In this document: in pieces, positions 8,177-11,074 of the stretch | How the letters are laid out: every line of letters starts with the position of its first letter | Position numbering within the stretch: position 1 is the stretch's first letter | From: Candidatus Heimdallarchaeota archaeon | GTDB lineage: Archaea; Asgardarchaeota; Heimdallarchaeia; JABLTI01 | Assembly: GCA_030614005.1 (NCBI GenBank) | Contig: JAUWKS010000027.1 | Location: forward strand, 1 to 32,000 | Direction of reading: 5' to 3' | DNA length: 32,000 bases | Made by a program: the position numbers and the translations under genes | The notes under the pieces: model-generated | The model's input: only the letters and a program-made list of their open reading frames with translations | Database searches by the model: none | Told to the model about the DNA's origin: nothing

Positions 8177-11074
8177 TTATTTATCTTTGAGAAGATTTTC
8201 AGCTATTTTTCTCTTCCATTGAGTGGGTATTTTTTGTCCAAATAATTTATTGAGTGCCCTATTAGCTTCAAATAAGAATAATTTTGCTTCTTCAAGTGTT
8301 GGTATGTATGGTAATTCACCTGGTTTTGTGTGTTTAATTTTCTGTGCCCAGAATCTATTCAAACTCTTTAGTTCAACATTAGATGGCAACGATATTTTTG
8401 AAGCTTCAGCTGCTCTAAGAATTTTACCTAATTCCTTAGATTCCACAATATCTTGGAATCGAGGTAATTTATCAATATCAGATATTTCCTGGATTTCAAG
8501 AAGCAATTTCTGTTTCAAAATGGATTCCACTACACTACCAATATCAAAAACAACTCTTCGAGTGTCGCCTTTTGAGACATCTTCTACACTGGTTATTATC
8601 ATCTCTTTTAATTGATCAGGTAAATTCTTCATGCTGAGGAAAAGATTTTCAAAGAAAAATATTCCTTCAAGTTGCTCTGTTTGTATTAATTTCTCAATTA
8701 ATATTCGGATTTCTTCTTTATCTCCAATGGAATAATTCTTGGCAAATTTCTCTATGTTTATACTGCCTTCACTAATAATTATATTAGCAAGTAAATCTAG
8801 TACAACGAAATTATCTTCATTTATAAATTCCCCTTTGACATACCCTTCTTCAGATATTTTCTCAAAAATAATTCTTGCACTTTCTTCTGTTGTATCATAA
8901 GACTTAGAGATTTCTTTTAATGAAATTATTGGTGTTCTTTCTGCAACTTCAACCATTTCAGAAATTAGTTCATCGGAAATTGATAATAGCAACGAAGCTT
9001 TATCCATATGTATTGGTGCAGGAATTTCCTTCCGCGCAACAAGATCTTTAAGAATCAATTTTAATGTTATAATATTAATATTAGTATCTTCTGCGAGATT
9101 GGCTACTTTTACTTGTTTAATCTTCTTTAGATGCATAGCTCCTACTCTTTTCCAATAGGCTTGCCTAACCATTTCACGTGCGTAATCTTTCGTGAGAATG
9201 AAATTCTTTGATTTATCCATAATATATCTATCATTAAGCAAAGGAATTGATTCAATGTAATTAATTAATCGTTCCTCTGATAACCATAGCAAAGAGATAA
9301 TATCAGAAACTTTTGCTTTTTGTGCAGTTTTACTAGATTTTGATAGCTGTCTTCGAATTGTACTATCAATTATATTTGCTAAATCATCATTTACCGCATG
9401 AAGTTTCTCCAATCGATTTCCAAGATCAGATTTTTCTTCTCGAAGTTTGGTTAGCACTTTTACTTTTGATTTTTGGTCTTCTTCTAATCGATGGATTGTT
9501 TCAAGATCCTTCGCTCTCTTGGAATCTTTATCAATTAAATCTTCTCGATGAGAATTAATGGTTTCATCTCTAACTTTCAAAGCATACTTGAGAGCTTTAA
9601 CAGTTTCACCTTTTTCTTCATTGCTAAAATATTTATCAAGTCTATTAGAAATCCAAGGAATTCTTACTTCTGTAAAGAAATAAAGTGCAAATATTAGAAT
9701 TATTATCATAAATATTGGTACCAAAACTGCGGAAACAATGATAGGTACTAATGTTTCCCAATTTACTACTCCATTTGATGTTGGAATAATTTTTGGCTGT
9801 AAACCTACTTGTAATTGATAGTCTCCCTTTGCAAAATCGTCTTCATCAAAATCACCAATAAATGTTATAGAGATGTAATATGTACCATTTTCTATATCTA
9901 AGGAGAAAATTTTTTCAGGAGCACCAGGTAACTCTTCTTTAGATTCATAAATTTTAGTTTTGTCAGAATCAAAGAGAGTTAAATCAAAATTATAAATATT
10001 ATCAAATATTGTGAGATATACATAGATGGTGGTTAAACCAAATACGGTGAAAGTGTAGAAATCAATTTGATCACCATTCCAAACTAATTGACCATTAAAT
10101 GAAGAATTTGATAATGGAAAAATCTTTATTGCTTCCTCTGCAGAATTACCAGCATCTATACCTTGGTTAGCATCATTTTGTGATTCTAATAGAATCGATA
10201 AGTTATAATAAACAATATCAAAAAGGTTAAGTGTATCTATTAGATGAATACCAATTTTATAATCTCCTTCCAGAGAAATTGCCCAAGATATTGTATCATT
10301 AAAACCAGACGTACGTGTGGATTTACTGAGTTCTTCACTTTCAATATCATATAGATAAACATCTACATTTGAAGTGTTTAATGATTCAAGATAAATAGTT
10401 ATTATTTCTCCATTAGTGATGTAAATCGAATAGAAATCAAAAGTATCGCTGCCTTCAACAAGCGTTCCATTAGAAGTTCCTTGAGTTACATGTAATGGAG
10501 AGCTTAATTGGGAAGGAGCGTCATAAGTTGAATCAAAATCATTTTGTGAGATAAAGTGAAGTGAAAAACTATAATTGCCAACTTGGTCACCAGTAGCTGG
10601 GGTTATAGAAATCGAATAATTTCCCGCTGATGCAATAGAATAAATAATTTTTTCTCTAATGCCTGCTTCTTTGAGATTTTGAGGTCGCGGATCAAAATTG
10701 TCATCGTATAACGTCAAATCAAAATTTATTGAGAGATTTAGGGGTATCATTGATACATTGATTATTGTGCCTGCGCTCACTTCAAAAGTATAATAATCTG
10801 CATCTGTAATTACAAGTGATCCATTATAATCCCCACTAATGATAGGTGTAGCAAGTGGGAGGGAATCGCCTGCATCTCCACCAGAATTAGCATCATTTTC
10901 TTCCCAATTTGGGGTAAGTAATCCTTCCCTAAAAGGAGTTGTTTTTTGAGAGGTTGAATTTACTATTGTGTGATTTTCATTGAAATCACCGTCTTGCATA
11001 CCAATTACACATAGAGCCAATACTGAAATAGTAATAATTATTGCCACAAATTTAATATTAATTTTTATTCTCAA
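8177..11074 (-). CDS. Single-pass receptor-like protein: signal/anchor, 3 PPC-like extracellular repeats, TM helix, coiled coil, tandem PCI-like winged helices, HEPN-like C-terminal domain (TTG start)
   Basis: Three repeats of about 120 aa beginning ENDANSGGDAG, QNDFDSTYDAP and QNDANQGIDAG, each with D-[YF]-Y and D-[LV]-x-L-[YF]-D PPC-type motifs; TM at aa 442-467; charged heptad region aa 490-577; winged-helix-like units between aa 585 and 815. Confidence 0.8.
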   Translation of the reverse strand: MRIKINIKFVAIIITISVLALCVIGMQDGDFNENHTIVNSTSQKTTPFREGLLTPNWEENDANSGGDAGDSLPLATPIISGDYNGSLVITDADYYTFEVSAGTIINVSMIPLNLSINFDLTLYDDNFDPRPQNLKEAGIREKIIYSIASAGNYSISITPATGDQVGNYSFSLHFISQNDFDSTYDAPSQLSSPLHVTQGTSNGTLVEGSDTFDFYSIYITNGEIITIYLESLNTSNVDVYLYDIESEELSKSTRTSGFNDTISWAISLEGDYKIGIHLIDTLNLFDIVYYNLSILLESQNDANQGIDAGNSAEEAIKIFPLSNSSFNGQLVWNGDQIDFYTFTVFGLTTIYVYLTIFDNIYNFDLTLFDSDKTKIYESKEELPGAPEKIFSLDIENGTYYISITFIGDFDEDDFAKGDYQLQVGLQPKIIPTSNGVVNWETLVPIIVSAVLVPIFMIIILIFALYFFTEVRIPWISNRLDKYFSNEEKGETVKALKYALKVRDETINSHREDLIDKDSKRAKDLETIHRLEEDQKSKVKVLTKLREEKSDLGNRLEKLHAVNDDLANIIDSTIRRQLSKSSKTAQKAKVSDIISLLWLSEERLINYIESIPLLNDRYIMDKSKNFILTKDYAREMVRQAYWKRVGAMHLKKIKQVKVANLAEDTNINIITLKLILKDLVARKEIPAPIHMDKASLLLSISDELISEMVEVAERTPIISLKEISKSYDTTEESARIIFEKISEEGYVKGEFINEDNFVVLDLLANIIISEGSINIEKFAKNYSIGDKEEIRILIEKLIQTEQLEGIFFFENLFLSMKNLPDQLKEMIITSVEDVSKGDTRRVVFDIGSVVESILKQKLLLEIQEISDIDKLPRFQDIVESKELGKILRAAEASKISLPSNVELKSLNRFWAQKIKHTKPGELPYIPTLEEAKLFLFEANRALNKLFGQKIPTQWKRKIAENLLKDK

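Follow-up and report, generated by a model that had tools for sequence, protein, structure and literature searches.

A gene in a 32,000-nucleotide stretch of a Candidatus Heimdallarchaeota genome (assembly GCA_030614005.1, contig JAUWKS010000027.1, positions 1 to 32,000; the whole stretch is hereafter the window) encodes a receptor-like membrane protein whose cytoplasmic winged helices are homologous to those of Asgard DDRGK1/UFL1-type proteins, the archaeal relatives of a eukaryotic ligase scaffold. The gene occupies 8177..11074 (-), begins with TTG and specifies 965 residues, identical to database protein P0002. It encodes a real membrane protein composed of a signal sequence or anchor, three PPC domains, one transmembrane (TM) helix, a coiled coil, four winged helices and a HEPN-like end domain. 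About 40 clusters of homologues are recorded, and the sources that name them list hypothetical proteins from 'Candidatus Heimdallarchaeota' or from archaea of the 'Asgard group'. An earlier interpretation made from the letters alone (the sequence-only reading) had proposed an outward-facing PPC array wired through a single TM helix and a coiled coil to tandem PCI-type winged helices and a HEPN-like end, without a kinase, as a possible undescribed signalling or defence system. The features it observed hold as a whole, as does the inferred layout, and a literature search turned up no description of the architecture; what it made of them is supported in part. New here are the kinship of the winged-helix array with UFL1/DDRGK1, the motif and predicted dimer of the HEPN-like domain, and the distribution of the family across one genus. 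Our preferred reading, held with a confidence that is about evenly balanced, is that the protein is a surface-to-cytoplasm receptor or a membrane docking scaffold of DDRGK1/UFL1 type.

In eukaryotes, UFL1 and DDRGK1 form the scaffold of the UFM1 E3 ligase that is anchored in the membrane of the endoplasmic reticulum (ER). We modelled the cytoplasmic half of the window protein with AlphaFold2 on 25 homologues (mean predicted local distance difference test, pLDDT, 80) and compared it with known folds. A Foldseek search of the PDB was led by UFL1 on the 60S ribosome (8qfc_B) and a UFL1-DDRGK1 chimera (8b9x) at E 2e-6, with SelB, which has four winged helices, next at E 7.5e-4. Among AlphaFold models of Swiss-Prot entries, 26 of the top 30 matches were UFL1 orthologues from animals, plants and Dictyostelium, most of them aligning query residues 102-369/459, which hold winged helices 1 to 4 (WH1-WH4), to about residues 61-320/425 of UFL1. 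Taken singly in VIA fold searches, the winged helices resembled those of DDRGK1 and eS25 as well as PCI winged helices from the COP9 signalosome (CSN) and from the lid of the proteasome (Z 7.8-9.2). For WH3 the CSN and lid matches reached Z 8-9.2 (at Z 8.2-9.2, root-mean-square deviation, rmsd, 1.6-2.9 over 58-66 aligned residues) and the DDRGK1 winged helix (8c0d_B 205-271) Z 7.8 (rmsd 3.5, 67 aligned). Such matches of single winged helices are generic; that of the whole array is more specific. At the level of Pfam, PCI (PF01399) does not match the window protein at E <= 1, and 13 of the 25 family members do match (best E 8e-6), with a precomputed PF01399 match for one homologue.

The fold matches are accompanied by remote sequence homology, so that a UFL1-type tandem array is recognised by both. 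Searching 399 Asgard genomes returned weak matches to WH2-WH4 in six genomes of other families. Five of these six open reading frames (ORFs) were scanned, and 4/5 pass the Pfam cut-offs for DDRGK and E3_UFM1_ligase; two of these four are membrane-anchored proteins of ~390 aa. BLASTP to Asgard proteins that pass both cut-offs gave E 2e-7 and 0.004. Profile-profile comparison with hhalign then linked the family to a Promethearchaeota family of membrane-anchored PCI+DDRGK+UFL1 proteins (alignment A3; probability 95%, E 3.5e-8, 216 columns) and to one UFL1-like Asgard protein (80%, E 1.5e-5), compared with 0.2% for a ScpB-like tandem winged-helix control. These comparisons confirm the link, and we therefore treat WH2-WH4 and the DDRGK1/UFL1-type module of Asgard proteins as homologues. 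UFL1/DDRGK is thus the specific closest relative of the array, beyond the mere example of tandem winged helices as which the sequence-only reading had cited it. The tie to the Promethearchaeota family is visible only from profile to profile.

Comparison with UFL1-DDRGK1 itself (UFBP1; 8b9x, 8ohd, 8qfc, 8c0d) shows a common order of membrane anchor, long helix and run of PCI-type winged helices, here at aa 442-467, 489-579 and from 586 onward, which is the arrangement of DDRGK1. Added to this are the best fold matches in both the PDB and Swiss-Prot and a profile-level homology that runs through Asgard proteins with the same Pfam domains. Two polypeptides in eukaryotes correspond to one here; DDRGK1 has essentially no ectodomain, whereas the window protein carries a 410-aa PPC ectodomain that is predicted to be glycosylated; UFL1 has a C-terminal domain of its own, whereas the window protein ends in a HEPN-like domain; and the window protein matches neither the DDRGK nor the UFL1 family of Pfam, in a genome where UFM1 and UFC1 were not found. 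UFL1 and DDRGK1 are reported to be older than UFM1 and Asgard-derived, with an original function that is unknown (PMC10183829).

The nearest sequence relatives of WH2-WH4 are the Asgard PCI+DDRGK+E3_UFM1_ligase proteins of ~384 aa and two further proteins, at loci L016 and L017. The ~384-aa family shares with the window protein a membrane anchor just before the winged-helix array. The Asgard UFL1-like array proteins differ in having no PPC ectodomain, long coiled coil or HEPN-like end, and they come from another Asgard class at ~21-27% identity; the window protein extends this membrane-anchored type by an extracellular PPC array, a long coiled coil and a predicted dimer of HEPN-like domains. 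The Promethearchaeota members (L018:369-1559 (-), L019:1716-2879 (+) and P0045-P0058) have N-terminal TM helices followed by winged helices and pass the Pfam cut-offs for PCI, DDRGK and E3_UFM1_ligase together, and each looks like a membrane-anchored fused DDRGK1-UFL1-like protein. The 1023-aa Asgard protein at L016:2353-5421 (+) combines a beta-propeller of FG-GAP/BBS type with DDRGK-/UFL1-type winged helices and a C-terminal zinc ribbon, and is the best pairwise match of WH3-WH4 outside the family (E 2e-7). Weak UFL1/DDRGK matches within the genome of the window, on contigs C36, C82 and C96, proved to be small soluble tandem winged-helix ORFs, one of them apparently ScpB-like, and were set aside as non-orthologous. 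The 279-aa soluble ORF on C36 (G000:C36:6876-7712, L004:1261-2097) is sub-threshold to both Pfam DDRGK and E3_UFM1_ligase; against the family, hhalign gave it a weak 40% over WH4 and the start of the end domain.

After the TM helix, the cytoplasmic part enters a single long helix at aa 489-579 (9338..9610 (-)), which the AlphaFold2 model places at cytoplasmic residues 22-112. Its hydrophobic power at a period of 3.5 residues is 1.63, compared with 0.19 +/- 0.19 in shuffled sequences, a value that 0 of 5000 shuffles reached. This strong periodicity identifies the segment as a coiled coil, of the ~90 residues and in the position that had been proposed, and it contains the invariant charged blocks KD.KRAKDLE..H.LEED and DDLANIIDSTIR. 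The sequence-only reading had expected three or four PCI-like winged helices and had named structural modelling of this region as a check; the model contains four, and the strings it gave as examples fall in WH2 and WH3. WH1 (aa 586-628; 9191..9319 (-)), defined from the model, resembles the winged helices of MntR, HmgR and MCM (VIA Z 6.9-8.2). A connecting helix with the invariant basic segment YWKRVGAMHLKKIKQ follows (aa 629-654; 9113..9190 (-); isoelectric point, pI, 10.4; conservation 0.92-0.93). The segment itself (aa ~640-654) is invariant yet poorly modelled, with low pLDDT at cytoplasmic residues 179-185. The same holds for KEIPAPIHMD..LLLS (aa ~682-698), by its sequence pattern the beta-wing of WH2. 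WH2 (aa 653-698; 8981..9118 (-)) has a PCI-type sequence pattern, and here the hhalign match to the Asgard DDRGK/UFL1-type family begins. WH3 (aa 701-758; 8801..8974 (-)) is supported by VIA and by the BLASTP match at E 2e-7 to the protein with PF09756 and PF09743, and WH4 (aa 759-814; 8633..8800 (-)) by the model and hhalign. Both are acidic (pI 4.2-4.4), which suggests protein contacts. Contact with RNA could be made by two basic parts, namely the segment of aa 629-654 and the end domain (pI 9.25).

Conservation is 0.46 outside the membrane and climbs to 0.70 on the inside, where it peaks at 0.92-0.97 in aa 561-580, 641-660 and 901-920. Against two homologous loci the cytoplasmic part is 62-70% identical, like the neighbouring redox enzymes, whereas the ectodomain, at 44%, is unlike them; the cytoplasmic part is under steady purifying selection. 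By sequence it belongs to no named family in Pfam, NCBIfam or the PDB, and a feature-based search of the ESM Atlas gave no usable match. A Pfam scan of the 965-aa protein found no kinase family, and the coiled coil and four winged helices occupy the region where a kinase might stand.

On the other side of the membrane, Pfam recognises PPC (PF04151) in three stretches with 58.1 bits against a gathering cut-off of 25.9 (E 1.6e-15); in the genome-level search there were also three matches, one of which passes the cut-off alone. The repeats, of ~120 aa each, are 26-38% identical to one another and have in common the motif NG.LV...D.DFY.F...G..I.V.L...N.DL.LYD...G.Y.I. From Pfam and the repeat alignment we place repeat 1 at aa 55-177 (10544..10912 (-); best PF04151 stretch aa 91-158), repeat 2 at aa 178-298 (10181..10543 (-); PF04151 match 10247-10441, aa 212-276) and repeat 3 at aa 299-428 (9791..10180 (-); match 9866-10063, aa 338-403). 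The ectodomain contains 8.8% Asp, in agreement with the Asp-rich repeats first noticed, and has a net charge of -44, compared with +1 for the cytoplasmic part; it has no match among PDB sequences. Archaeal and bacterial PPC surface or secreted proteins likewise carry PPC domains after a signal sequence. They are proteases or surface proteins with a short tail or none, whereas the window protein, with three PPC domains, continues into 500 conserved cytoplasmic residues.

The protein has only two hydrophobic segments, at aa ~5-28 and aa 442-467. The former lies in a basic N-terminus (aa 1-30; 10985..11074 (-); Kyte-Doolittle peak 2.65 at aa 7-25) that is either a signal peptide or an N-terminal anchor, and a segment of similar kind begins all full-length homologues. 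The latter (9674..9751 (-)) reaches a hydropathy peak of 3.18 and keeps its position in 40 homologues, as befits the single TM helix assigned to these residues at the outset. Thirteen N-x-S/T sequons fall at aa 34-396 and one in the 498 residues C-terminal of the TM helix, matching the dozen or so originally counted; shuffling predicts 6.0 +/- 2.1 outside (p ~0.001). The asymmetry is kept in 40 homologues, with 6-17 sequons outside (9-17 in full-length proteins) and 0-5 inside. Given this asymmetry and that of charge, the PPC array and the cytoplasmic half lie on opposite sides of the membrane, and a topology with both halves on the same side is not borne out. The same genome encodes five other PPC proteins, three of which consist of a signal peptide, an ectodomain and a C-terminal TM anchor, with tails of a few residues to ~85 aa. 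Since these paralogues are TM-anchored surface proteins, they support the outside location of the PPC array.

The three anchored PPC proteins (G000:C69:41055-43007, G000:C75:18799-21201 and G000:C73:54240-56366) are 651, 801 and 709 aa long with a signal sequence each, and two of the three are rich in sequons (16 and 19 sites). The set looks like a family of surface proteins that are glycosylated. The anchored layout of these paralogues also suggests that the gene in the window arose by fusion of a PPC surface protein with a cytoplasmic module. In many homologues (P0009, P0012-P0014, P0017-P0019, P0021, P0024, P0026-P0029, P0031-P0035) the N-terminal hydrophobic segment ends in Cys, often as ...SGFC or ...SFC, and in the window protein it reads ...LALC. 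This Cys could be a lipobox-like or processing site instead of the end of a plain signal peptide.

The helical C-terminal domain announced by the sequence-only reading is a bundle of seven helices at aa 820-965 (8180..8617 (-)), predicted with pLDDT 91 when folded alone. Its assignment as HEPN-like is tentative: HEPN members come first in three fold libraries, while the scores are modest, the motif is non-canonical and no profile matches. A VIA search of 48,161 PDB chains placed the sacsin HEPN domain best (Z 8.1, rmsd 4.1, 120 aligned), followed at Z 6-7.8 by Roquin, LsoA, Csm6, TT1696, AF0298, HI0074, HEPN toxins, RnlA, HepS and AbiV; values of Z 6-8, and in general those below 8-13, are common for helical bundles. 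Foldseek against AFDB clusters returned DUF4145, Abi_C and Apea-like HEPN domains with probabilities up to 0.96 but E >= 0.24, and the ESM Atlas returned Abi_C and HEPN clusters (TM scores 0.54-0.57). Against the PDB, Foldseek found nothing at E <= 0.001 (E >= 0.24), and none of the 25 family members matches Pfam HEPN, DUF4145 or Abi_C at E <= 10. The HEPN reading draws its support from the recurrence of one superfamily and not from any large score.

The most conserved stretch of the domain is the invariant motif N-R907-F-W-A-Q911-K-I-K-H915-T-K-P-G-E-L-P (aa 906-922; 8309..8359 (-); conservation 0.97 over aa 901-920). Its R907-x7-H915 core (RFWAQKIKH) reads R-x3-Q-x3-H and departs from the canonical R-x4-6-H. 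Four Asgard DUF4145 domains read LRVFGNEAVHPG, LRFLRNIGAH, LRVIGNESVYPG and IRIQYNSTKH, that is R-x3-N-x3-H, except that the third has Y for H. In these domains the motif ends a helix, and in 2/4 a P-G loop comes next. Spacing and position are thus equal, with Q in place of N. With these four domains hhalign gave a probability of 0.1%, a weak negative in view of the tiny alignment. The DUF4145/Abi_C branch of HEPN (PF13643, PF14355) shares with the end domain the helical bundle (TM scores 0.39-0.57), R-x3-[N/Q]-x3-H at a helix end, and then a P-G loop and a long helix. It differs in that the window protein has no profile match, Q for N and two extra helices inserted, and in that the partners of DUF4145 and Abi_C are restriction or Abi modules, whereas here the domain forms the end of a receptor-like protein of the membrane. 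A predicted homodimer of the end domain scored 0.59, compared with 0.00 for the best of three controls, and passes. Among proteins of solved structure, 20 of 30 same-chain pairs attained the pass mark, as did 1 of 23 single chains. Contact agreement between runs was >= 97% and partner pLDDT >= 86. The predicted interface draws on the two segments with the highest conservation, namely the helix TRR..FD.GSVVES and the loop K-H-TKPGELP. It includes domain residues 100 and 102-108; K914 of both copies touch at the two-fold axis, and residues 916-922 are brought together.

Together, these features outline how the protein might work. The gene product would be a type I (or N-anchored) surface glycoprotein, most likely a parallel dimer whose two chains are joined through the coiled coil and the end domain. 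Outside, three acidic, N-glycosylated PPC beta-sandwich domains would form a fast-evolving binding or sensing module, from which the TM helix and the ~90-aa coiled coil would carry the connection inward. Inside, a slowly evolving platform of four PCI-type winged helices, followed by the dimeric HEPN-like domain, would bind a cytoplasmic partner through the invariant surfaces, namely the charged blocks of the coiled coil, the basic YWKRVGAMHLKKIKQ, the wing of WH2 and the cleft of the HEPN-like dimer. This partner may be a ribosome, an RNA-protein complex or a ubiquitin-like machinery; any signalling, like pairing through the coiled coil, is likewise putative.

Several observations weigh against this picture. 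Neither Pfam E3_UFM1_ligase (PF09743) nor DDRGK (PF09756) matches the protein or its 25 homologues (E <= 10 for the former), a search of the genome with PF09743 at E <= 1 did not return the locus, and a hidden Markov model of the Promethearchaeota family (A3) found nothing in the genome, the receptor-like gene included. UFM1 and UFC1 were not found at the Pfam level in this 90.4%-complete genome, where PF03671 gave a 14-bit chance-level match only and PF08694 none. The acidity of WH3 and WH4 argues against direct binding of nucleic acid by them. The dimer prediction, made for the end domain, used a shallow alignment (25 rows, 61-95% identical), and likeness to solved HEPN dimers may have helped it to pass. 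Lastly, the hydrogenase, M48 and aIF5A neighbours are syntenic across one genus only and say little about function.

The sequence-only reading had asked how the gene and its neighbourhood are distributed across Asgard genomes, and the answer is one genus, in single copy and in synteny. With the cytoplasmic part as query, each of the 10 other genomes in the same GTDB genus gave a match, one as a fragment, and the other 388 Asgard genomes searched contain no copy, the six with weak matches showing them at the level of the winged helices only. A profile of the end domain matches 0 of 71 other genomes of the class, and phmmer over 1.84 billion representatives recovered the family itself and one chance match to the coiled coil (P0044). 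The family is thus single-copy and confined to one GTDB genus of Heimdall-group Asgard archaea. Around homologues of 70% and 62% identity, the order of [NiFe]-hydrogenase genes, M48 protease, receptor-like gene, aIF5A and three ORFs of unknown function is conserved, with the M48 protease gene convergent and aIF5A divergent to the receptor-like gene. Because all these genomes come from one genus, synteny is no proof of a functional link.

In the window, the M48 gene (5615-8083 (+)) encodes an 822-aa peptidase of HtpX/Ste24 type, much longer than HtpX, and its tail-to-tail arrangement with the receptor-like gene recurs at the homologous loci L001 and L002, where the peptidase has 902 and 816 aa. 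The three conserved ORFs at 11829-12236 (-), 12432-13292 (+) and 13358-15916 (-), of 135, 286 and 852 aa, belong to no Pfam family and accompany the receptor-like gene and aIF5A in all loci examined. A 130-aa GTG ORF at 8223-8615 (+), antisense within the region coding for the end domain, is taken as a shadow ORF. One in-frame TGA occurs within the orthologue frame in each of two genomes of the genus (G081:C41:107096-108580 and G082:C11:75164-75616). It may reflect recoding, an error of sequencing, or a stop codon that lies shortly before the start. Among public sequencing runs, none of RNA is listed with the locus, and the DNA runs that contain it are marine-sediment and cold-seep metagenomes.

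Other readings of the same protein have to be weighed against a receptor or docking scaffold, one of them built on the end domain. IRE1 consists of a sensor domain, a TM helix, a kinase and a KEN/HEPN RNase that is switched on by dimerisation. With IRE1 and RNase L the window protein shares a single-pass layout with outward sensor and a C-terminal domain of HEPN-like fold, here a predicted dimer; it differs in having neither kinase nor pseudokinase, an unrelated sensor fold, a weak HEPN similarity and a non-canonical motif, so that the likeness is one of function and no homology is claimed. We think it unlikely, yet worth serious attention, that the protein is a kinase-less IRE1-like transmembrane RNase, in which a ligand or clustering of the PPC array re-registers the coiled coil and closes the HEPN dimer into an active composite RNase. 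Such an enzyme would cleave RNA close to the membrane (rRNA, tRNA or the mRNA on translocating ribosomes), with the winged helices docking the substrate or ribosome. This would account for the dominance of HEPN members among the fold matches in VIA, AFDB clusters and the ESM Atlas, for the invariance of R907, H915 and their neighbours, for the spacing and helix-loop position shared with R-x3-N-x3-H(-P-G) of the four DUF4145 domains, and for a predicted homodimer (0.59 versus 0.00) that joins K914 and 916-922 of both copies at the two-fold axis. It sits poorly with the unmet R-x4-6-H and the Q for the usual N, with the absence of a Pfam HEPN match in 25 members (E <= 10) and 0.1% from hhalign against DUF4145, with Foldseek results that are nowhere significant in PDB or AFDB (E >= 0.24), and with Z values of 6-8 that helical bundles commonly reach. 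Many HEPN domains are also non-catalytic (sacsin, Roquin, MtlR-type), and a switch is not obvious, because the coiled coil would make the dimer constitutive. A defence role for the same domain, as an abortive-infection sensor whose ectodomain detects virus attachment and whose HEPN domain kills the cell, strikes us as very improbable. Folds of this HEPN-like sort (Abi_C, DUF4145, AbiV, HepS) are characteristic of defence systems; yet PADLOC has no match for the protein and, among four neighbours, one sub-threshold hit to the 286-aa ORF (2TM 'Effector', E 0.0077). The gene is present in all genomes of the genus, in single copy and at the same place between hydrogenase genes and aIF5A, a steadiness that is the opposite of patchy, island-borne defence genes, and its cytoplasmic part is under steady purifying selection. 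Conserved synteny and the absence of PADLOC matches disfavour a mobile defence island, and with housekeeping neighbours throughout the genus the suggestion of a defence system was not upheld.

A structural envelope protein, with the PPC array as surface layer or adhesin and a cytoplasmic part that anchors it to a sub-membrane lattice (ESCRT-II-like or cytoskeletal) and transfers no information, is in our estimate a little less plausible than the IRE1-like RNase. PPC surface proteins with signal peptide and C-terminal TM anchor are common in the same genome, the ectodomain is fast-evolving and rich in sequons as surface proteins are, single winged helices also resemble ESCRT-II Vps25/Vps22-type and PCI scaffolds, and WH4 has its weak 40% hhalign match to the 279-aa tandem winged-helix ORF. 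However, 500 cytoplasmic residues conserved like an enzyme, with several invariant motifs that do not look structural, go far beyond the needs of an anchor; the other PPC proteins suffice with tails of a few residues to ~85 aa, and the gene is single-copy, neither abundant nor paralogous. The kinship of the array leads to a further reading, which we rate as improbable, that the protein is a membrane-bound scaffold-type E3 resembling a fused DDRGK1-UFL1 and bringing a charged E2, from the ubiquitin-like system that the archaeon itself has, to substrates in the membrane or the ribosome. UFL1 and UFL1-DDRGK1 are its closest structural relatives, its array is homologous to Asgard UFL1/DDRGK-domain proteins, the order of TM helix, long helix and winged helix mirrors DDRGK1, and besides one ubiquitin-like protein, three UQ_con E2-like ORFs occur in the genome. 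Those genes lie on other contigs (C123, C29, C1 and C94), unlinked to the receptor-like gene, however, and UFM1, UFC1 and Pfam matches to UFL1 and DDRGK are all missing. At the level of sequence, no counterpart of the N-terminal E2-binding helix or of the partial winged helix of UFL1, which DDRGK1 completes, was recognised.

The architecture, with its link to eukaryotic ER-surveillance scaffolds, gives the family its interest, although its reach is limited by restriction to one uncultured genus. The protein is a concrete pre-UFM1 use of the UFL1/DDRGK1 scaffold, in a genome where UFM1 and UFC1 were not found; here the scaffold lies under a membrane, wired to a sensor-like array that is predicted to be glycosylated and capped by a predicted HEPN-like dimer. 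Residues 468-965 make a compact, expressible construct with which to ask whether the scaffold originally bound a ribosome, RNA or an E2. A long shot, in our view, is that a fused scaffold of DDRGK1/UFL1 type underlies a transmembrane RNase that is IRE1-like and kinase-less, in which PPC domains sense an external or envelope cue, the coiled coil passes it on, the array docks membrane-bound ribosomes and the HEPN dimer cleaves their RNA. If true, this would be an archaeal device for membrane-proximal surveillance of translation, uniting in one polypeptide the counterparts of two eukaryotic ER-surveillance modules, one analogous (the IRE1 RNase) and the other homologous (the ribosome scaffold UFL1/DDRGK1). 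Should the HEPN-like domain prove to be an RNase, the protein would be a single-pass receptor of a prokaryote that acts through an RNase, a logic known until now, to our knowledge, from IRE1.

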